Positions 3,463 to 36,854 are shown, numbered from the stretch's first letter. The stretch: 39,667 bases of DNA from Candidatus Nealsonbacteria bacterium CG07_land_8_20_14_0_80_39_13 (GCA_002779355.1 PEWS01000027.1:1-39667); one strand, 5' to 3'. A program made the numbers and translations. Notes: generated by a model not told the origin, from the letters alone.

Positions 3463-3915
3463 ATGACTAAATATCTGACCAAAGAGGGTTTGGAAAAATT
3501 AAAAAAGGAATTGGATTATCTGAAAAACATTAAAAGAAAAGAAGTGTCCGCGGCCATTAAATATGCCGCTGATTTTGGCGACTTAAAAGAGAACGCCGCT
3601 TATGACGAAGCTAAAGACGCTCAAGGATTTGTGGAGGGCAAAATTTTGGAACTGGAGAGAGCCGTCGCCCAAGCCCATGTTATTGAAGCGATAAATAACG
3701 GCAAAATTCAAATAGGCTCAATTGTTTCAATCCGTTCTGGAGAAAGAGAAGATAGATTTCATATTGTCGGCCAGGAAGAATCGGATATTATGCAGGGGAA
3801 AATTTCGTATCAATCTCCTCTGGGGTCAGCTCTTATGGGCAAGACTGAAGGAGAAAAGGTTATCATTAAAATTGCGGAAAACAAGACTGAATATAAAATA
3901 ATTAAAGTTGAATAA
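3463..3915 (+). CDS. greA: Transcription elongation factor GreA
   Basis: LTKEGLEKLKKELDYL, then GDLKENAAYDEAKD in the coiled-coil finger, then a C-terminal FKBP-like domain. Confidence 0.92.
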   Translation: MTKYLTKEGLEKLKKELDYLKNIKRKEVSAAIKYAADFGDLKENAAYDEAKDAQGFVEGKILELERAVAQAHVIEAINNGKIQIGSIVSIRSGEREDRFHIVGQEESDIMQGKISYQSPLGSALMGKTEGEKVIIKIAENKTEYKIIKVE

Positions 3916-3927
3916 TTTTTCAGGAAA

Positions 3928-4674
3928 ATGAAAATTAATCTGCTGATTATAGGTTTTGCTACGGGATTTATAAGTTCTTTTTTGGGTATCGGCGGAGGGG
4001 TTTTTCTTGTTCCGGCCTTGGAGTATTTTTGGGGCTATAATTTTGAAAGAGCCATCGGCGCTTCCTTGGCCATAATAGCTCCGATTGTTTTGGCCGGATT
4101 GCTGTTCCATTTTTTGATAGAAGCCGAGAATATTAAGCTGGTGTTTGCCGCTTTTGCCGTTCTTGGTTCAATTATCGGAGCTAAGATCGGCGCTAATCTG
4201 GCTAACAAAATAGAGGACGGATTGCTGGCAAAAATTTTCTCTTTTGTTTTTGTTTTAGCCGGATTGAAGCTGACGGGAATAATTTGTTTTCCCATAGAAC
4301 AAATTTTCAGTGAAAATATTTATCCGCTTCTGATTGTCTTAGGGCTGGCCGCCGGAATAATATCAGCTCTTTTCGGCATAGGAGAGGGACTGATAATTGT
4401 TCCGGGTTTAAGCCTTTTTTTCGGCTTTTCAATGCAGGAAGCCATAGCTACTTCTTTGGCTGTGATATTTCCAACGACATTAGCCGGGGCGCTGTTTCAT
4501 CATAAATTTAATAATATAGAAATGGATGTTGTGAAGAATTTGATTCCCGCGGCTTTAGCCGGAGCTTTTTTCGGCGCGCTTTGCGTCAATATCATCCCTT
4601 CTCTTTTCGTAGAAAAGATTTTCGGAATTTTCATGATTCTTTATTCAATTAAAACCTTTTTAAGAAAAAATTAA
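3928..4674 (+). CDS. TauE/SafE (DUF81) family membrane transporter
   Basis: Polytopic membrane protein with an internal duplication. The GIGGG / GIGEG motifs are typical of this family. Confidence 0.75.
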   Translation: MKINLLIIGFATGFISSFLGIGGGVFLVPALEYFWGYNFERAIGASLAIIAPIVLAGLLFHFLIEAENIKLVFAAFAVLGSIIGAKIGANLANKIEDGLLAKIFSFVFVLAGLKLTGIICFPIEQIFSENIYPLLIVLGLAAGIISALFGIGEGLIIVPGLSLFFGFSMQEAIATSLAVIFPTTLAGALFHHKFNNIEMDVVKNLIPAALAGAFFGALCVNIIPSLFVEKIFGIFMILYSIKTFLRKN

Positions 4675-4769
4675 TGTCAATTTTGACCAAAAAGATAAGC
4701 TGGCCAATTGTAATTTTAATCTCCCTTTTCTTGAGCGCCCTCCTTCTCTTTTTAGAAGTCCATTTTATT
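4674..4769 (+). CDS. Possible 31-aa single-TM peptide (MSILTKKISWPIVILISLFLSALLLFLEVHFI)
   Basis: Its start overlaps the upstream stop as TAATG, and the core is hydrophobic. It is below the ORF-track cutoff. Confidence 0.25.
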
Positions 4770-4794
4770 TAAAAAATGAAAAATTAGAAAAACT

Positions 4795-6684: not shown

Positions 6685-6709
6685 ACAACGGAGGACGGGC
6701 CTCCGTTGT
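6685..6709 (+). terminator. 10-bp GC-rich hairpin after the hydrolase gene
   Basis: ACAACGGAGG-ACGGG-CCTCCGTTGT, preceded by a direct repeat of GAGAACAACGGAG. There is no strong U tract. Confidence 0.4.
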
Positions 6710-7627: not shown

Positions 7628-9034
7628 TTAGTTGATTTTGGCGATGGCCAGGGAGTTATTAATCTCTATTCTTTTCCAGTTGCCTCCGTGAATTATCAGA
7701 ACATTCTCTCCGACTTTAACCAATCCTTGTTTTTTTAATTCATTTAGGATGGGGAGCGGGCTTCTGAAAGCTCCTGTTGGAAATTTTACAAAAAAACTTG
7801 TTACTCCATACAGCAAAGCTGAAAACTCGGCGGTTTTTTTATTGTTGGTTATGGCAATCACCGGTATGCTTGGCCTTAAGCTGGATAGGGCTCTGACTGA
7901 ATACCCGGTGGAAGTGAAAACAAGAGCTTTCGTTATATTGAAGTCTTTATGATTTTCAATTATTTCCATGCCTGCTTCAGAAATCAATTCCACAAAGCTG
8001 TTGGGCTTAGGAGCTAATCTTAAAGAGGGGCATTCTTTTTCATTGAAATCCAATATTCGGGACATTGTCTCAATTGTCTTGATCGGATATTTTCCGGCGG
8101 CGGTTTCTTCGGAAAGCATTACTGCGTCGGTGCCGTTGAAAACAGCATTGGCGACATCCGTCGCCTCCGCTCTTGACGGGCTGGGATTATCAATCATTGA
8201 CATAAGCATTTGGGTGGCGACGATAACCGGTTTTCTTTTTTCCCGGCATTTGGAAATGATGGATTTTTGCCAGTAAGCGATCTGCTCAATTGGTATCTCA
8301 ACTCCGAGGTCTCCTCTGGCTATCATTATTGCGTCAGCCGATTCAATGATTTCTTCTATATTGTTCAGAGCTTCTTTATTTTCTATTTTAGCGACGATTT
8401 GAGCTGTTATTTTTCTTTTCTTCATTTCCTTCCTTAGGAATTCAACGTCCTCCTTTGTTCTGCAGAAAGAAAGGGCGATAAAGTCAATTTTAACTCTGGC
8501 CGCCATATCCAGTTTTTTCAGGTCGTCGTTGATAAGGGAAGGCAAGCCTGTCTTTTTCCCGGGGAAATTGACGCCTTTCCTGTTTTTTATAATTCCGTCT
8601 CCGAGGGCTCGGGCGTATAAAAATCCGTTTTTCTTTTCAATCACTTCAAATTCAAAAAACCCATTATCTATTGAGAAAAGGTCTTTCGGTTTCAGCATTT
8701 TTAAAATATTGGAGTGGGGAATGACTATTTTTATTTCCGGAGAGGAAAAAGATTTCCCGAAAATTAAGGACTCGTTTTTTTTGAAAATTACAGCCTCTTT
8801 GTTTTTTGTGAAAATTCTGACTTCAGGTCCCTGGAGGTCTATCATGATGCCGACAGGGATTTCCAGAGAATCTGATATCTCTTGGACTATTTTTATTTTT
8901 TCATTATGCCATTCAACGGTAGAATGTTTCATATTGAAGCGAAAAACATTCACGCCGGCTTTTATAAGAGCGGCTATGTCTTTAGGGCTTTCCGAAACTG
9001 GCCCTATTGTAGCAATAATTTTCGTCTTTTTCAT
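7628..9034 (-). CDS. pyk: Pyruvate kinase
   Basis: TKIIATIGP, NVFRFNMKHS, MIARGDLGVEIP, ATQMLMSM, and a C-terminal domain. Confidence 0.95.
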   Translation of the reverse strand: MKKTKIIATIGPVSESPKDIAALIKAGVNVFRFNMKHSTVEWHNEKIKIVQEISDSLEIPVGIMIDLQGPEVRIFTKNKEAVIFKKNESLIFGKSFSSPEIKIVIPHSNILKMLKPKDLFSIDNGFFEFEVIEKKNGFLYARALGDGIIKNRKGVNFPGKKTGLPSLINDDLKKLDMAARVKIDFIALSFCRTKEDVEFLRKEMKKRKITAQIVAKIENKEALNNIEEIIESADAIMIARGDLGVEIPIEQIAYWQKSIISKCREKRKPVIVATQMLMSMIDNPSPSRAEATDVANAVFNGTDAVMLSEETAAGKYPIKTIETMSRILDFNEKECPSLRLAPKPNSFVELISEAGMEIIENHKDFNITKALVFTSTGYSVRALSSLRPSIPVIAITNNKKTAEFSALLYGVTSFFVKFPTGAFRSPLPILNELKKQGLVKVGENVLIIHGGNWKRIEINNSLAIAKIN

Positions 9035-12502: not shown

Positions 12503-13423
12503 ATGTACGATATTATAATTATTGGGGGAGGGCCGGCGGGAATAAACGCCGGAATATACGCAGCCAGATACAGATTAAAAACGCTTTTGATAACGGAAAA
12601 TTTCGGCGGACAGATAGTCTGGAAATCAGTTGATATAGAAAATTATCTCGGTTTTGGAAAAATTTCCAGTCCGGATTTAATTAAGAAATTCAGAGAACAT
12701 CTGAAGAATTTTGAAGTAGAAATTATGGAAGGCGATTCAGTAATAGGTGTTTCTAAGGGGGAAGCAGGGTTCCTTGTTAAAACGAAGAGCGGAAAGGATT
12801 TTGAAGGGAAAACAGCTATCGTCGCTTCAGGGGCAAGTCCTCGTCATTTGAATGTCGCCGGAGAAAAAGAATTTATCGGCAGAGGCGTGAGTTATTGCGC
12901 TACTTGCGATGCTGCTATGTTCAAAAATAAATCTGTTGCCGTAATCGGCGGAGGCAATGCCGGATTTGAAGCGGCTTTAGCTTTAAGCAAGTGGGCTGAC
13001 AAAATCTATATTTTGGAATTCGCTCCGACAATGCCGGCTGATGAAGCCAATAAATCAATGGCTGCTGAAACCGGGAAAATAGAGTTGATTGCCGGCGTCG
13101 CCTTGAAAGAAATTAAAGGAGCTCAATTTGTAAGTTCCATAAATTACGAAGACAGGGTTTCCAAGGAAATTAAAAGCCTTAACGTAGAAGGAGTTTTTAT
13201 TGAAATAGGGCATCAGCCGGCTAATGTTTTTGTTAAGGACTTGGTTGAATTCAATGAAAAAAGCGAGATAAAAGTTGACGATAATTTTATGTCTAAAACG
13301 CCGGGTTTTTTTGCCGCCGGGGACGTTAACAATACAAAATACAAGCAGATTATAGTCGCCGCCAGCGAGGGCGCTCAGGCGGCCTTATCGGCCTACGAAT
13401 ACCTCAGAACATATGGAAAATAA
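12503..13423 (+). CDS. trxB: Thioredoxin-disulfide reductase
   Basis: FAD site IIIGGGPAG, redox CATCDA, NADPH site VIGGGNAG, GDV. Confidence 0.92.
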   Translation: MYDIIIIGGGPAGINAGIYAARYRLKTLLITENFGGQIVWKSVDIENYLGFGKISSPDLIKKFREHLKNFEVEIMEGDSVIGVSKGEAGFLVKTKSGKDFEGKTAIVASGASPRHLNVAGEKEFIGRGVSYCATCDAAMFKNKSVAVIGGGNAGFEAALALSKWADKIYILEFAPTMPADEANKSMAAETGKIELIAGVALKEIKGAQFVSSINYEDRVSKEIKSLNVEGVFIEIGHQPANVFVKDLVEFNEKSEIKVDDNFMSKTPGFFAAGDVNNTKYKQIIVAASEGAQAALSAYEYLRTYGK

Positions 13424-14669
13424 TAAAATTAAATCAATAAGGGCGAGAGAAATTTTGGATTCAAGGGGAAATCCGACAGTTGAAGTTGAATTGAAAACCA
13501 AGCTCGGCTGTTTTTACGCTTCGGTTCCGTCGGGCGCGTCAACAGGGGAATGCGAGGCAGTTGAATTAAGGGACGGCGGAGAAAGATATGGCGGGAAAGG
13601 AGTTTTGAAAGCTCTAAAAAACATCAACGAAATTATTGCCCCTAAACTTAAAGGGAAAAGCGTTTTAGAACAGAAAAAAATAGATGATATAATGATTAAG
13701 CTGGATGGCACGGAGAATAAATCAAAATTAGGCGCTAATGCTATTTTGCCGGTTTCAATGGCGGTTTGCCGAGCCGGCGCTGCCACAAGCAACATTCCCC
13801 TGTATAAATATATCAACAAAATTCAAAATTCAAAATTCAAAATTCAAAATTTCAGAGCGCCTTCTCCTTGTTTTAATATCATTAATGGAGGAGCGCATTC
13901 CAGCAGCAATCTGGATATTCAGGAATTTATGATCATTCCTCAGGGGAATAATTTTGCGGAAAATCTTCAAATTTCAACGGAAATTTATCATAATTTGGAA
14001 TCTATTTTTGAGAAAAAATTTGGCGCCGGGTCCGTGAGTCTGGGAGACGAGGGAGGGTTCAGTTCAATGACCCTTGGCGTTGAAGATGCTCTGGATATTA
14101 TAATGAAGGCTGTAAATCACAAGAAATACGGAGAAAAAATAAAATTGGGCCTGGATTGCGCCGCCAATCATTTTAAAAAGAAAAATTCCAGCCAATACTT
14201 TTTGGAAAATAGAGAGCTTTCATCAGAAAGTTTAATGAATTTTTATCAGGATCTTGTTGATGAATATCCGATTATATTTTTGGAAGATCCATTTGCCGAA
14301 AAAGACTTTAACGGTTTCAAGGAAATTCAGCGGCTATTGAGAGAAAAAATATTGATTATCGGCGATGATTTGATATGCACTAATCCTAAAATGATCAGAA
14401 AAGCGAAAGAAGAGAATTTATGCAATGGGATGATTGTAAAAATGAATCAAATAGGAACAATTTCAGAAACATTAGAGGCAGCGGCCTTGGCTAAGTCGTT
14501 CAGCTGGAAACTCATCACTTCTCACCGGTCAGGCGACACCTGCGATGATTTTATCGCTGATTTAGCAGTGGGAATTGGTAGCGACTTTATAAAATCCGGC
14601 GCTCCGGCCCGCGGTGAACGCGTGGCAAAATACAATCGCTTGTTGAAAATCGAGCAAGAACTTAATTAG
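13413..14669 (+). CDS. eno: Enolase
   Basis: ILDSRGNPTVEVE, SVPSGASTGE.EA.ELRDG, NGGAHS, IQEFMI, SHRSGDT. Confidence 0.95.
   Translation: MENNKIKSIRAREILDSRGNPTVEVELKTKLGCFYASVPSGASTGECEAVELRDGGERYGGKGVLKALKNINEIIAPKLKGKSVLEQKKIDDIMIKLDGTENKSKLGANAILPVSMAVCRAGAATSNIPLYKYINKIQNSKFKIQNFRAPSPCFNIINGGAHSSSNLDIQEFMIIPQGNNFAENLQISTEIYHNLESIFEKKFGAGSVSLGDEGGFSSMTLGVEDALDIIMKAVNHKKYGEKIKLGLDCAANHFKKKNSSQYFLENRELSSESLMNFYQDLVDEYPIIFLEDPFAEKDFNGFKEIQRLLREKILIIGDDLICTNPKMIRKAKEENLCNGMIVKMNQIGTISETLEAAALAKSFSWKLITSHRSGDTCDDFIADLAVGIGSDFIKSGAPARGERVAKYNRLLKIEQELN
13818..13853 (+). repeat. Heptanucleotide tandem repeat (AAAATTC x4 plus a partial unit) inside eno
   Basis: Direct reading. It translates as KIQNSKFKIQNF in a variable surface loop. 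Confidence 0.9.
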
Positions 14670-14762
14670 TTTTTTGTAAAATAAAATGACAATTATTGAC
14701 GAAATTGTTATTGAAGTCATATTGTTGATGTCAGACGTCAATATAAAATTTTCATATAAATC

Positions 14763-15455
14763 ATGCCCTACAGAAAAGAACAGTTTATCAATGAAGAGAT
14801 TTATCATATTGTTATAAGGGGAATTGACGAAAACTTAATTTTTAAGAATATAGACGATTATTATCGCGGCATTTTTTCCATATACGAATTTAATACAATA
14901 AAACAGGTAACTATAAGGGAGCGTCGCAGTATTCGCGCTAAAATAAAAGCCGAAATGAAAACTAACAGAGACCCGATCTCTGTAACCGATTCGAGGGAAA
15001 AATTAGTGGAGATTTTATGTTTTTGCTTTATGCCAAACCACATGCATTTGCTTTTAAGGCAAATTAAAGACAATGGCATTAGTAAATTCATGGCCAAATT
15101 TGGTATTGGATACGGAGGATATTTTAATAGGAAATATAGCAGAAAGGGGTATGTTTTTCAGCAAAGATTTTTCGCTGTTCGTGTAAAAACCCAAAAACAA
15201 TTTGAAACAGTTTTTGTTTATATCCATGCCAATCCAGTATCATTAATTGAGCCGAAATGGAAAGAAAAGGGAATCAAAAATCCAAGAAAGGTAATTAATT
15301 TTTTAGAAAATTATAAATGGTCAAGCTATCAAGACTATGTTGGTAAAAAGAATTTTCCTTCCGTTACGGATAGAGAATTTATGTCAAAGACCATGGGTGA
15401 TGAGGAGGGATGTAGAGAAATTATTAAAAATTGGATAGAATATAAAGAAGAATAA
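14763..15455 (+). CDS. HUH Y1 transposase, IS200-like / REP-associated tyrosine transposase (RAYT)-like
   Basis: HUH motif in FMPNHMHLLL. Y1-type C-terminal region VYIHANPV. N-terminal YHIVIRG strand. Confidence 0.8.
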   Translation: MPYRKEQFINEEIYHIVIRGIDENLIFKNIDDYYRGIFSIYEFNTIKQVTIRERRSIRAKIKAEMKTNRDPISVTDSREKLVEILCFCFMPNHMHLLLRQIKDNGISKFMAKFGIGYGGYFNRKYSRKGYVFQQRFFAVRVKTQKQFETVFVYIHANPVSLIEPKWKEKGIKNPRKVINFLENYKWSSYQDYVGKKNFPSVTDREFMSKTMGDEEGCREIIKNWIEYKEE

Positions 15456-15476
15456 TTACAGAGATCGGGTCTCTGT
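15456..15476. repeat. 21-nt hairpin; exact reverse complement of 14965-14985 inside the transposase ORF
   Basis: TTACAGAGATCGGGTCTCTGT here and ACAGAGACCCGATCTCTGTAA inside the ORF. Each has an 8-bp stem (TACAGAGA/TCTCTGTA). Confidence 0.85.
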
Positions 15477-15537
15477 AGGGTCTTTGTACGATGGGCGGAA
15501 ATTAGAAATCGGAAATTAGAAATTAAAAGGTTTTTTT

Positions 15538-16758
15538 ATGAAAATAATATTGATACTTATTGATGGTTTAGGAGATGAACCGATTCCCGCTTTGGGGAAC
15601 AAGACTCCGCTTGAGGTGGCTGAAACGCCGAATTTGGATTTTATGGCAAAAAACGGCCGATGTGGTTTGGTTAAGACATTTAGATTTCCGGAAGAAAATG
15701 AGCCGACTTCAGAGGGAGCGCACATTGCTTTGTTTGGTTACGAAGATAACTTTCTCGGCAGGGGCGCTTACGAAGCAATGGGTATTGGGATTAAATTAAA
15801 AAAGACAGATGTTGCCTTAAGGGTGAATTTCGCTTTTGTTTTTCAGGAAGAAGAAAGCGGGCTAACTATCGTTGACCGAAGGGCCGGTCGGATAGAAAAA
15901 ACCCAGCCACTGATTAAAGCTCTTTCCGGAATTAAAATTCAAGGGATAACATTCTTACTGAAAAAGGCCTTTGGACACAGGGCAGTTTTAGTAATGAGGG
16001 GAAAAGGTTTGTCGAAAAATATTTCCGACGGCGATTCTCATGCGGAAAATGGCCTTGTAAAAAATATTCTTCCCTTAGACGATTCGAAAGAGGCGAAATT
16101 TACAGCCGAGGTTTTGAATCAATTCCTTGCCCAGTCCCATCAGATTCTGGAAAATAGCGTTTTTAATAAAAAAAGGGGAAAGAACGGACTTTTGCCGGCC
16201 AATTTTCTTTTGATTAGAAGAGCCGGACAGATTGGGGACATTGTAAGTTTTAAGAATAAATATGGATTGAGGTCAGGTTTTGTCGCAGGAGGAGGACTTT
16301 ATAAGGGCATGGCAAGGATTTTAGGAATGAAGGAAATAAAGGTTAAAGGCGCCACCGGATTTTATAATACCAATCTTAAAGGAAAAATTTCAGCCGTTAA
16401 GAAAAATATTAATAATTTTAATTTCATTTTTTGCCATATAAAAGCGACTGATACTTTCGCTCACGACGGAGATTTTCAAGGAAAAAAAGATTTTATAGAA
16501 AAGATAGATAAAAATTTGAAACCGCTTTTGAATTTAAAGAATACTTTAATTGTTGTCACCGGAGATCATTCTACCTGTTCTTTAGAGAAAGATCATTGCT
16601 GTTTGCCTGTTCCAATTTTTGTTTATGGCGAAGAAAAAGATTTGATAAATAAGTTTTCAGAGAGAGATTGCTTGAAGGGGAGTCTGGGGACAATTAAGCA
16701 GGAAGATTTTATGCAAATTATTTTGAATTATGCTAAAATAAACAATAATAAACAATAA
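15538..16758 (+). CDS. apgM: Cofactor-independent phosphoglycerate mutase, archaeal type
   Basis: ILILIDGLGDEPIPALGNKTPLEVAETPNLDFMAKNG, and TGDHSTC near the C-terminus. Confidence 0.85.
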   Translation: MKIILILIDGLGDEPIPALGNKTPLEVAETPNLDFMAKNGRCGLVKTFRFPEENEPTSEGAHIALFGYEDNFLGRGAYEAMGIGIKLKKTDVALRVNFAFVFQEEESGLTIVDRRAGRIEKTQPLIKALSGIKIQGITFLLKKAFGHRAVLVMRGKGLSKNISDGDSHAENGLVKNILPLDDSKEAKFTAEVLNQFLAQSHQILENSVFNKKRGKNGLLPANFLLIRRAGQIGDIVSFKNKYGLRSGFVAGGGLYKGMARILGMKEIKVKGATGFYNTNLKGKISAVKKNINNFNFIFCHIKATDTFAHDGDFQGKKDFIEKIDKNLKPLLNLKNTLIVVTGDHSTCSLEKDHCCLPVPIFVYGEEKDLINKFSERDCLKGSLGTIKQEDFMQIILNYAKINNNKQ

Positions 16759-22968: not shown

Positions 22969-22991
22969 CATGTTGACGTCTGACGTCAACA
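22969..22991. promoter_or_regulatory. Perfect 11-1-11 palindrome ATGTTGACGTC-T-GACGTCAACAT upstream of hicBA (candidate operator)
   Basis: Direct reading. It is also flanked by TTGCGC / GCGCAA. Confidence 0.6.
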
Positions 22992-23015
22992 TTGCGCAAG
23001 GATATACTAAGAGAA

Positions 23016-23050: not shown

Positions 23051-23308
23051 ATGTTCCAAGATTTTTTGACTTTTTATTTGAATAAAGCCAAATACGAGCT
23101 GATTGAAAACGGCAAGGTTTATTATGGGGAGATTTCCGAACTAAGAGGTGTTTGGGCAACAGGAAAAACTATCGAAGAATGCAGAAAGAATCTTTTAGAA
23201 ATTATTGAAGGATGGGTAATTTTGAGATTGAGAAAAAATTTATCGATTCCAAATTTTAAGATTCCTTACAAGAAAATTTCTTTTAACAGGGTTTATGCCA
23301 AAGCTTAA
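23051..23308 (+). CDS. hicB: HicB-family antitoxin
   Basis: YYGEISELRGVWATGKTIEECRKNLLEIIEGW matches the HicB/UPF0150 pattern. It overlaps the hicA start. Confidence 0.7.
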   Translation: MFQDFLTFYLNKAKYELIENGKVYYGEISELRGVWATGKTIEECRKNLLEIIEGWVILRLRKNLSIPNFKIPYKKISFNRVYAKA

Positions 23309-23516
23309 ACCAATTTCTTGGCGAGAATTAGTAAAATATCTGAAGGGGTTTGGTTTTGAGAGACCATATCAATCGGGGAAACATCCCTATATGGTTAATG
23401 GCGATCTAGTTTTAACCATTTCAAATCCTCACTCTAAGGATATCAGCCAAGATCTTCTTTCTAGAATTTTGAATCAAGCCGGAATCAGCAGAGAAGATTG
23501 GGAAATAAAGAAATAA
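23295..23516 (+). CDS. hicA: HicA-family mRNA interferase toxin
   Basis: ISWRELVKYLKGFGFE....GKHPYM pattern, 73 aa. Confidence 0.75.
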   Translation: MPKLKPISWRELVKYLKGFGFERPYQSGKHPYMVNGDLVLTISNPHSKDISQDLLSRILNQAGISREDWEIKK

Positions 23517-30015: not shown

Positions 30016-31140
30016 TTATTCTTCCTGCTCTTCGGCTGATTCCATGGCTTCTATAATGGGGTCAAGTCTTCCTTCCATTATCTCTTCAATGCCGTGGAAA
30101 GATTTTTTAATTCGGTGGTCGGTTACTCTGTCTTGAGGAAAATTGTAGGTTCTGTTTTTCTCCGCTCTTTTGGCCCTTCCTATTTGTCCTTTTCTGTCCC
30201 CGCCTAATTTTTGAGCCTCTTCCTCCTCTCTTATTTCAAGGAGGCGAGCTGATAGAACGCTCAAGGCGTTTTCTTTATTTTGGAGCTGGTTTCTTTCGGT
30301 CTGGGATTCAACGACCAATCCTGTCGGGATATGGACTATTCTTACAGCCGTCTCTCTTTTATTGACGTTTTGCCCGCCCGGTCCTGACGAACGGCAATAT
30401 TCAATTTTTAATTCATCAGGTTTAATTTCCAATTGAGTATTTTTCGGTTTCGGAAGAATGGCCACTGAAACGGTGGAAGTGTGTATTCTTCCGCTTTTTT
30501 CCGTTTCGGGAATTCTCTGGACTCTATGGACCCCGGACTCGTTTTTCATTTTAGAGAAAATATCGCCGTTCCCGTCCGCATCGCTATGCGAAGCGTTGCG
30601 GGTGGATTCCAGCTGAAATACGATTTCTTTAAATCCGCCAGTTTCAGTAGGGCTGGAATTAAGGATTTTTTGCCTCCAACCTTGCTGTTCCGCGAACCTT
30701 GAATACATCTTGAATAAATCTCCGACGAATAAAGCTGCTTCGTCTCCCCCTGCGCCGGCCCTGATTTCAACGATTATGTCTTGCGGTTCAGAGCTTTCTT
30801 TCTGGCCTTTGATTAATTTTTTTAATTCTTTTTCCAAGACCTCCTTTCTTTCCCTGAATTGAGTAATCTCAATTTCAGCCAAGGAGGATAATTCGGGGCC
30901 TTCTTTCCCATTCAGGATCGCCCTGTTTTCTTCAATTCTGTCGTCAATTTCTTTTATTTCTTTTTCTTTCTCAATTATTTTTTCAAGATAGCTTTTCCTT
31001 TTAGATAGTTCTTCAAATTTTTTCCAGCCCGCATCGCTACGCGAAGCGTTGCTGGCGGGCCAATCAGAAATCAGCTCAGGGTTGCTGAGCTGATTTAAAA
31101 TTTCTTTATATTCCCGCTGAATATCGCTTAGGTTATCCAT
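30016..31140 (-). CDS. prfA: Peptide chain release factor 1
   Basis: P-E-T tripeptide (RIPETEKSGRIHTS), GGQ (SGPGGQNVNK), and DHR near the C-terminus. Confidence 0.93.
   Translation of the reverse strand: MDNLSDIQREYKEILNQLSNPELISDWPASNASRSDAGWKKFEELSKRKSYLEKIIEKEKEIKEIDDRIEENRAILNGKEGPELSSLAEIEITQFRERKEVLEKELKKLIKGQKESSEPQDIIVEIRAGAGGDEAALFVGDLFKMYSRFAEQQGWRQKILNSSPTETGGFKEIVFQLESTRNASHSDADGNGDIFSKMKNESGVHRVQRIPETEKSGRIHTSTVSVAILPKPKNTQLEIKPDELKIEYCRSSGPGGQNVNKRETAVRIVHIPTGLVVESQTERNQLQNKENALSVLSARLLEIREEEEAQKLGGDRKGQIGRAKRAEKNRTYNFPQDRVTDHRIKKSFHGIEEIMEGRLDPIIEAMESAEEQEE
30571..30605 (-). repeat. GC-rich palindromic element, in-frame copy inside prfA
   Basis: On the coding strand: CCACCCGCAACGCTTCGCATAGCGATGCGGACGGG. 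It encodes TRNASHSDADG. Confidence 0.8.
31024..31062 (-). repeat. GC-rich palindromic element, in-frame copy near the prfA N-terminus
   Basis: On the coding strand: TGGCCCGCCAGCAACGCTTCGCGTAGCGATGCGGGCTGG. It encodes WPASNASRSDAGW. Confidence 0.8.
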
Positions 31141-33228: not shown

Positions 33229-33301
33229 GCCAGAATAGCTCAGCGGTAGAGCAACTGTTTTGTAAACAGTAGGTCGGCGGGTCCGAATCCCCCTTCTGGC
33301 T
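33229..33301 (+). tRNA. tRNA-Thr (anticodon UGU)
   Basis: Acceptor GCCAGAA/TTCTGGC, D arm GCTC-AGCGGTA-GAGC, anticodon arm ACTGT-TTTGTAA-ACAGT. The T arm GCGGG-TCCGAAT-CCCCC has one C-C mismatch, and the variable loop is 6 nt. Confidence 0.75.
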
Positions 33302-33470: not shown

Positions 33471-34962
<1,492 letters not shown>

Positions 34963-35839: not shown

Positions 35840-36100
35840 ATGTTCTGTGTGTATTTTTTGAAAAGCATTAAAAATGGTAAGATTTACGTAGGATTTACTT
35901 CTAAAAATATTGAGGTAAGGGTTGAAGAACATAATAGCGGTTCAAACGTTTTTACGAAAAACAATAAGCCATGGGTTTTGGTATATTATGAGATATTTAG
36001 TTGTGAAAAATGCGCTAGAGCGAGAGAGAAGTTTTTTAAATCGGGTATGGGTAAAAGATTAAAAAAGATAATTGTAGATAATTTTAATATGCGCGTGTAG
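35840..36100 (+). CDS. Small GIY-YIG nuclease family protein
   Basis: VYFLKS..GKIYVGFTSKNIEVRVEEHNSG is the GIY-YIG motif. The stop codon TAG lies inside the tRNA-Ile gene. The track start 35834 is TTG. Confidence 0.8.
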   Translation: MFCVYFLKSIKNGKIYVGFTSKNIEVRVEEHNSGSNVFTKNNKPWVLVYYEIFSCEKCARAREKFFKSGMGKRLKKIIVDNFNMRV

Positions 36101-36164
36101 CTCAGTTGGTTAGAGCGCGTCACTGATAATGACGAGGTCCGTGGTTCGAGTCCACGCTCGCGCA
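36091..36164 (+). tRNA. tRNA-Ile (anticodon GAU)
   Basis: GCGCGTG-TA-GCTC-AGTTGGTTA-GAGC-G-CGTCA-CTGATAA-TGACG-AGGTC-CGTGG-TTCGAGT-CCACG-CTCGCGC-A. Confidence 0.9.
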
Positions 36165-36422: not shown

Positions 36423-36854
36423 AGAAGTTCCTTCTTAGTCAGGAGGATTTCAATGATTTTTCTAGATTTGAAGATGCAGAGAGCTGCATTTTCAAGGACG
36501 AAAAATTCCCGTGCGCCTTCACGGGATAGGTGTTTAAGGGAGCACGACAATAATTGTCCTCTGCCCCTATATTTCTAAGTTCGGAATTACATTATTAAAA
36601 AATTACGAATTTAGAAATGCTCCGGTCCCGCTGAAAGCGGGACGGGGGTTTAAAGAAAGAAGTCGGAAGCGCTTTCGCGACGGGGATATCTCTTTCCAGT
36701 TCTTCGCAAGAAGAACAATCTCTGTTACGAAAGCACCCCCGGCTTTTTTCAGTCCAGAGGACTATTCAGCCCAGAGAGCTTTCAAGTTGTAAATGTGTCA
36801 ATGAGGAGGTAAAATAGAAAAATAAGAACAATATTTAGAATATTTTTGAACTCT

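Follow-up and report, generated by a model that had tools for sequence, protein, structure and literature searches.

The RAYT-like gene and its 21-nt hairpins

The DNA analyzed here, referred to below as the window, is a stretch of 39,667 nt from Candidatus Nealsonbacteria bacterium CG07_land_8_20_14_0_80_39_13 (GCA_002779355.1 PEWS01000027.1:1-39667). Positions 14763-15455 of its + strand form an open reading frame (ORF) of 230 amino acids (aa), predicted to encode a RAYT-like Y1/HUH nuclease, and a short hairpin similar to repetitive extragenic palindromic (REP) sequences is found both within this gene and directly behind it. The HUH motif (H93-M-H95) is encoded at 15039-15047 and a putative catalytic tyrosine (Y153, within YIHANP) at 15219-15221. 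The 21-mer ACAGAGACCCGATCTCTGTAA lies inside the ORF at 14965-14985 (+), and its exact reverse complement occupies positions 15456-15476. An initial annotation, generated by a model from the sequence, had pointed to this exact inverted pair with one arm in the coding region, and the pair was confirmed; the chance expectation for such a match is 0 (100 shuffles). No further match to the 21-mer was found in the 39.7-kb window at up to three mismatches.

The two 21-mers are, as had been proposed, cognate REP-like hairpins in inverted orientation. The in-ORF copy spans codons N68-V74 (NRDPISV), N-terminal to the HUH motif; its hairpin proper (14965-14983, + strand) has a perfect 7-bp stem (ACAGAGA/TCTCTGT) and a 5-nt loop, CCCGA. 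The hairpin of the downstream, inverted copy (15457-15477, - strand) has an 8-bp stem and a 5-nt loop reading TCGGG on the + strand. A stem of 8 bp, first ascribed to each copy, is thus reached by the downstream copy alone, owing to the flanking T/A. This copy begins at the first base 3′ of the TAA stop codon (15453-15455), with a gap of 0 nt. Folding of the two copies as single-stranded DNA (ssDNA) gave -5.4 to -6.2 kcal/mol (z -4.4 to -5.1), and the downstream hairpin also matches a terminator pattern, weakly and under lax settings.

Specific functions of the gene product were predicted on the basis of profile, fold and alignment comparisons. The Pfam profile Y1_Tnp (PF01797) scored 39.5 bits, above its cut-off of 23. 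Searching the PDB by sequence gave marginal matches only, and the relationship to known folds could be recognised only by a fold search. For the AlphaFold2 model of the protein, built from 64 homologs with a predicted local distance difference test (pLDDT) score of 81, the best Foldseek match in the PDB was 4ER8_A, E. coli TnpA_REP bound to REP (E 1.4e-5). The other matches were 2A6O, 2VJV and 2XM3 (the IS608 and ISDra2 TnpA proteins rank after 4ER8), and all four had a probability of 1.0. Homologs, represented by 2406 cluster representatives, share 63-71% identity. H93, H95 and Y153 (YIHANP) are invariant in both homolog alignments, A1 and A2; H95 and Y153 are spaced by 58 aa, and approximately 70 conserved residues follow the tyrosine motif. 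These comparisons of sequence and modelled structure, above all the Y1_Tnp match and the fold match to 4ER8, support the RAYT-like Y1/HUH identity first suggested for the ORF.

The C-terminal tail GEIKxFxxLxLE, nearly invariant in the homologs, is missing from the window ORF, which ends with WIEYKEE and a stop codon. The stop codon was apparently moved next to the hairpin by the in-frame loss of about 10 codons.

The window locus was found again in three independent metagenome assemblies (L092, L097 and L109) at 99.6-99.9% identity and is therefore not an assembly artefact. The genes on either side of the ORF encode enolase (13413-14669) and an ApgM-type phosphoglycerate mutase (15538-16758). 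Among the homologous loci described below the eno neighbour is shared only by L040, so a conserved eno-X-pgm position was rejected; many other loci are mutually syntenic.

Cognate hairpins in the linker and flanks of homologous genes

For comparison, 80 homologous genome loci were fetched, all from metagenome-assembled genomes (MAGs) of Patescibacteria; some of the counts given below refer to 81 loci. The MAGs are labelled as Staskawicz-, Nealson- or Wildermuthbacteria, Parcubacteria, Paceibacterota or, in many cases, 'uncultured Candidatus Saccharibacteria'. Several of the genomes contain 2-4 paralogs of the gene.

The in-ORF copy falls within a hypervariable linker of the coding region (approximately residues 65-81; 14955-15005, + strand), located between a basic helix (residues 51-64) and the strand leading to the HUH motif. 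Both the length and the sequence of the linker vary in alignments A1 and A2. Residues 67-75 of the window protein have a pLDDT below 50 and are without secondary structure, the sole such internal stretch of the model, and the peptide is thus predicted to be disordered. Ahead of the anchor that follows the linker there are residues 1-74 in the window protein vs 1-40 in E. coli RayT, i.e. about 34 extra residues, linker included.

Most of the homologous genes carry a hairpin at this very site. The best perfect hairpin of the whole coding sequence falls at nt 165-270 in 50/80 loci, with about 12 expected, and a GC-rich hairpin of at least 15 nt is present at the linker in 57/81 (approximately 65/81 on a looser reading). 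Its sequence changes from locus to locus, and its position in the alignment stays. It had been suggested that the residues around TNRDPISV might prove to be an insertion when RAYT homologs are aligned. An insertion peculiar to the window gene was rejected, as the homologs carry both the hairpin and the peptide (RDPxSV, RDRVSV, RGPSSV and similar); RDPxSV or RDRVSV recurs in them because they keep the hairpin.

Covariation of the stem was analyzed by aligning ten loci without gaps, with the PNH motif as the anchor, so that the alignment was not fitted to the structure. Changes on both sides of the stem were seen in 10 of 11 pairs, a value reached in 0/500 shuffles, and stem pairing (74.5%) fell to 48% or less when the partner columns were slid. 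Stems vary among the loci, and the CCG core of the apical loop (CCCGA, CCCGT or CCG) is kept in 46 of 55 hairpins.

To identify flanking copies of the in-ORF hairpins, 150 nt upstream of each gene and the segment from 40 nt before to 150 nt after its stop codon were screened. A copy in the gene's own flank was found in 46 of those 57 loci whose linker has a GC-rich hairpin (15 nt or more), vs 2.3% for non-cognate locus pairs. The copies at one locus are often identical over 15-33 nt and sometimes (for example in L004, L025 and L039) have a few bases beyond the palindrome in common as well, which marks them as true repeats. Homologs typically hold three of them – upstream, in-ORF and downstream, the last located from about 30 nt before the stop codon to about 65 nt after it. 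Where both flank copies are present (36 loci), they are mutually inverted in 29, with one preferred polarity in 22 of these 29, and within this main flank pattern the in-ORF copy matches the orientation of the upstream or the downstream copy equally (11:11). This arrangement revises the view that the in-ORF copy of the window is a left flanking hairpin absorbed into the coding sequence: in the homologs the upstream copy is distinct from the in-ORF one, which is a third copy placed at a family-conserved linker in either orientation.

The lax terminator match might still suggest that the downstream hairpin is a terminator unrelated to the in-ORF sequence, or that the inverted repeat arose by chance. 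However, the 21-mer has 0 expected matches, and the same architecture, with other sequences, is present in dozens of homologous loci; the shuffles, the cognate flank copies and the covariation refute the chance reading, whose probability we consider negligible.

Across the loci, the in-ORF hairpin is found in each of the three reading frames (23:22:10) and in either orientation (30:25 overall), and the orientations bear on a possible role in the mRNA. The 21-nt inverted repeat could close about 470 nt of coding sequence, creating an RNase III target or a translation block, or the hairpins could act locally, the 3′ one stabilising the transcript or stalling terminating ribosomes. REPs near stop codons have been reported to reduce translation in E. 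coli, the downstream copy directly abuts the stop codon (0 nt) and has a weak resemblance to a terminator, and the minimum free energy (MFE) fold of the RNA from 14940 to 15500 pairs both 21-mers (-140.5 kcal/mol, z -5.0). However, any perfect inverted repeat is paired by an MFE program, and the near-equal orientations of the internal copy leave no conserved RNA loop sequence on the sense strand. The same hairpins also recur upstream, in other genes and between genes on either strand, which points to a DNA element, and no Rfam family matched positions 14400-15800 at E up to 1. A role in the mRNA is, in our estimation, quite unlikely.

Paralogs within one genome have different hairpins, each restricted to its own locus, and syntenic orthologs whose flanks are 65-72% identical also bear different hairpins. 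The latter indicates vertical inheritance, with the hairpin triad evolving in concert in place. An autonomous insertion sequence (IS) of the IS200/IS605 type, with its left-end hairpin within the transposase gene, would agree with the Y1/HUH transposase fold, with hairpins at or near the gene ends and with the 2-4 members in several genomes. Nevertheless, IS-type mobility was rejected, since the paralogs of one genome are diverged and differ in their hairpins, and the many syntenic orthologs reflect vertical inheritance and not recent transposition. In addition, the flank hairpins are mutually inverted, in contrast to the same-strand end hairpins of IS200/IS605 elements, the protein (230-250 aa) has a C-terminal extension, tnpB is absent, and the segment between the in-ORF and downstream copies would hold no whole gene. 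The probability of an autonomous element at this locus is therefore very low.

Some loci have further peculiarities. L006, found in the same genome as its paralog L003, has lost the in-ORF hairpin (its linker reads HQDSEFLND) and is flanked on both sides by a near-copy (at most one mismatch) of the L003 hairpin. L027 contains head-to-tail hairpin arrays with a 21-nt period as well as inverted doublets upstream of the gene, in the linker and in the last codons (arrays and doublets at 1387-1445, 3867-3978, 4204-4241, 4755-4792 and 8332-8369). At L018 the half-stem TCTCCCAATAA is tandemly repeated in four copies 3′ of the downstream hairpin.

Dispersed copies and other palindromes of the window

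The initial annotation had recommended a search of the genome for further copies of the 21-mer, and in metagenomes its hairpin proved not to be unique to the window locus. Forty metagenome stretches carry the 19-nt hairpin; three represent the window locus and 37 lie elsewhere, in approximately 19 contexts. No homolog of the RAYT-like gene was detected on the contigs of these outside contexts, with the exception of L112 (60% identical, 3.4 kb from the hairpin). In about half of the outside contexts the hairpin is in frame within a long ORF (RtcA-, TatD-, DprA- and ComM-like, among others), and a P-type-ATPase-like ORF holds two in-frame copies.

In the TatD-like gene the position of the hairpin is that of a 7-aa (21-nt) insertion, as judged against solved TatD structures. 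In RtcA-like ORFs (L090, L115 and L118/L119) the exact 19-nt hairpin is present at the same codon positions in three orthologs with diverged flanks; the alignment to solved RtcA structures is gapless, with YRDRVSV in place of AKEISID. The hairpin thus overwrites native residues and is not inserted.

Extra cognate hairpins were also found kilobases away from the RAYT-like gene in L003, L007, L027, L040 and L054, in some cases inside neighbouring genes. In L040 the enolase gene, adjacent to the homolog as in the window, contains a 15-aa in-frame insertion composed of two cognate hairpins (L040:3253-3296); the enolase of the window does not have it. An inverted, REPIN-like hairpin doublet lies 3′ of the stop codon of the L040 gene (L040:4767-4810).

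Palindromes of other types were identified in the window. The region upstream of the RAYT-like gene, where repeated TTGA(C/A/T)G half-sites and a palindrome had been noted, contains three direct half-sites (14696, 14711 and 14725) and an inverted one (14736), i.e. four in 52 nt (14696-14741). This cluster is real and is the single instance in the window (P ~3e-5 per 52 nt). The palindrome (GTTGATGTCAGACGTCAAT, 14724-14742), located 21 nt upstream of the gene, belongs to a different class from the cognate hairpin and forms only a weak hairpin (-2.7 kcal/mol, z -1.0). None of the 80 homologs has the half-site cluster upstream; as it is present in the window only, it was rejected as a regulatory feature of the family. 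Positions 14724-14742 are a two-mismatch copy of 22972-22990 (0 expected by chance), part of the perfect palindrome ATGTTGACGTCTGACGTCAACAT (22970-22992, 10-bp stem), which lies about 58 nt upstream of a HicB(UPF0150)/HicA toxin-antitoxin pair (23051-23516). The palindrome common to these two upstream regions may represent either an operator used at both sites or another REP-like class, with CTG as its loop.

The intergenic hairpin ACAACGGAGGACGGGCCTCCGTTGT (6685-6709; 10-bp stem, -11.6 kcal/mol, z -6.5) belongs to the CCCG-loop class and has another stem. The hairpins of L010, L025, L038, L040, L042, L053 and L054 have exactly the same core, GAGGCCCGTCCTC, and the gene cognate to the intergenic hairpin is presumably a paralog located elsewhere in the genome.

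In-frame palindromic elements elsewhere in the window, of which the in-ORF hairpin had seemed an echo, are present in the RF1 gene (30016-31140, - strand). The encoded protein has two insertions of about 12 aa, PASNASRSDAGW and TRNASHSDADGN, relative to solved RF1 structures, which coincide with two copies (30569-30605 and 31022-31058) of TTCCCGTCCGCATCGCTATGCGAAGCGTTGCGGGTGG, a GC-rich palindromic element of 37 nt. The third copy, which is more diverged, is located at 1769-1805, at the 3′ end of another release-factor ORF (763-1815). This element class is distinct from the CCCG-loop hairpins.

The window also contains a bacterial 16S rRNA gene (33471-34961), within the span of which there is a perfect hairpin (33536-33559), and three tRNA genes (120-191, 33229-33301 and 36091-36164). 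Another perfect hairpin (36625-36643) lies beyond the 16S rRNA gene and the last tRNA gene, with copies at 1-2 mismatches on L093 and L105.

The intragenic copy and its relation to known systems

The gene family and its hairpins constitute a REPtron-like system of Patescibacteria with an intragenic copy of its own REP-like element. We consider it probable that a RAYT-like enzyme is here paired with its cognate hairpin, in a family normally having two inverted flank copies and an in-ORF copy that is a tolerated passenger. The ORF product would be an ssDNA nuclease/transferase of the Y1/HUH superfamily, similar to TnpA_REP, that recognises the folded hairpin on single-stranded DNA and may cleave it. 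The CCCG(A/T) apical loop might serve as the common handle and the variable stem might confer locus specificity. Nearby copies could be held identical by repeated copy-correction, either through cleavage and strand transfer by the enzyme or through gene conversion among the repeats, which lie a few hundred bases from one another. The NRDPISV peptide would then simply result from the presence of the hairpin and be tolerated since the linker is a flexible loop at the protein surface.

The passenger reading is favoured by the free choice of frame and orientation, by the disordered peptide and by the occasional loss of the internal copy with the flank copies kept. The internal copy has decayed in this way in L006, L019, L020, L021, L033 and L066, and in four loci all copies are lost. 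Most likely, the intragenic copy is a tolerated, self-perpetuating passenger and at most an extra cis binding site, inessential to the protein.

Several observations weigh against this interpretation. With the RAYT equivalog of NCBIfam, REP_Tyr_transpos (NF047646), the protein reached 46.8 bits, short of the required 80. A foot of the classical REP type (GT[AG]G or CGTC) was found in only 4 of 212 hairpin strands, and neither tag is present in the contexts of the window 19-mer. Those approximately 19 outside contexts are low-GC contigs not assignable to the genome of the window. The window itself contains only two cognate copies, in-ORF and downstream; no remnant of an upstream cognate hairpin was found there (the best match has nine mismatches, which is background), and the two inverted cognate flank palindromes described for RAYT genes are consequently not seen at this locus. 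Without its near-invariant tail the window protein may be impaired, and taken together with the missing upstream hairpin this suggests that the window gene may be an impaired member of the family. Finally, retention of the hairpin at one linker in most loci exceeds the obvious prediction for a neutral passenger and leaves room for a function, and long perfect in-ORF palindromes of 27-46 nt are present in L002, L009, L038, L067 and L070.

The last two observations are also what a functional cis element at the DNA level would account for: by binding to its own gene during transcription or replication the enzyme could limit its expression, or the in-ORF hairpin could be a protected 'master copy' of the enzyme-hairpin lineage. 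The strict count of 57/81 (or ~65/81) comes from a family spanning 52-100% protein identity, the in-ORF hairpin co-varies strictly with the flank copies, and its independence of orientation suits a DNA-level better than an RNA-level role. Some HUH replication proteins, such as those of phiX174 gene A and pT181 repC, have their nick site in their own gene. However, the decay of the internal copy in at least six loci whose flank copies persist and the lack of constraint on frame and orientation speak against such a function, and cutting of the same strand at the internal and a flank site would destroy the gene. We regard a functional cis element as unlikely. A broader proposal can be entertained only tentatively, namely that selection maintains the in-ORF hairpin as a cis element coupling the enzyme to its hairpin lineage, in a RAYT-like system that extends across the Patescibacteria and also writes 21-nt frame-preserving palindromes into housekeeping proteins. 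If this were true, a code for the specificity of Y1/HUH enzymes would already be available in the hundreds of natural enzyme-hairpin pairs, with their constant loop and variable stem.

Understanding of the mutual recognition, spread and persistence of RAYT enzymes and their palindromes is still incomplete, and to our knowledge RAYT biochemistry covers three proteobacterial systems only. In the Patescibacteria family, natural cognate pairs number dozens to thousands, and in each of them the target hairpin lies within the gene of its presumed recogniser. Conservation of the loop together with covariation of the stem could make the determinants of specificity directly readable from the sequences. 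Frame-preserving palindromes moreover decorate housekeeping proteins (enolase, TatD-like, RtcA-like and RF1) in these reduced genomes, which bears on the annotation and modelling of proteins of uncultured bacteria.

The system can be compared with several known ones. With IS200/IS605 elements (IS608 and ISDra2) it shares the enzyme superfamily, and in those elements subterminal ssDNA hairpins are recognised. It differs from them in its inverted rather than same-strand hairpins, its syntenic vertical inheritance, its 230-250-aa protein and the lack of identical multicopy units.

Palindromic elements of Rickettsia reportedly lie in frame within host genes. Intragenic REPs have been described in several species (Di Nocera 2013, PMC3733652). 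As with both of these groups, short palindromes are found here in frame in unrelated housekeeping genes. Unlike them, the unit is about 21 nt, a multiple of three, and in the RtcA-like gene at least, the length is unchanged.

RAYT genes are located between inverted palindromes (Nunvar 2010), and the system described here has both this arrangement and the Y1/HUH fold in common with the E. coli rayT (yafM) REPtron (Nunvar 2010; Ton-Hoang 2012; Messing 2012, PDB 4ER8). As in classical REPtrons, the palindrome family is paralog-specific, inheritance is vertical and synteny is conserved. The E. coli rayT locus, used as a control, has bacterial interspersed mosaic elements (BIMEs) on both sides and no REP within the coding sequence, and its product is without the ~34-residue N-terminal stretch that includes the linker in the window protein. 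E. coli REPs have a GTAG head, a bulged stem and hundreds of copies, whereas the Patescibacteria hairpins are tagless, with short perfect stems, a CCCG(A/T) loop and an apparently low copy number. Loop and foot determinants are known to vary between REP systems (Corneloup 2021).

The closest parallel is provided by the in-frame REPs within tnpA_REP genes of subclass 2.4 (RAYT group 4; Quentin 2018, PMC6006769), owing to which the phenomenon as such is already known. In both cases cognate palindromes flank a RAYT-type gene, which is not disrupted by the further copies present in its own frame, and in both these copies occupy a region that varies in length and sequence. In subclass 2.4 this region is predicted to lie peripherally with respect to the DNA-binding and catalytic sites (PMC6006769), and here it is a disordered linker. 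In contrast to subclass 2.4, the Patescibacteria copy precedes the HuH motif (aa 68-74 vs 93-95) and the HuH-Y spacing is an ordinary 58 aa. Subclass 2.4 proteins are without a C-terminal core extension, whereas about 70 residues follow the Y motif in the Patescibacteria family, and the GT[AG]G foot of subclass 2.4 REPs (PMC6006769) is absent from the Patescibacteria hairpins, which are further set apart by their conserved apical loop and ~21-nt unit. The lineages also differ, with Patescibacteria here vs Cyanobacteria or Bacteroidetes for subclass 2.4 (PMC6006769). The in-frame arrangement of RAYT REPs is thereby extended to a second, independent site and lineage, which suggests that RAYT biology gives rise to it repeatedly and that it is more than an oddity of a single subclass.

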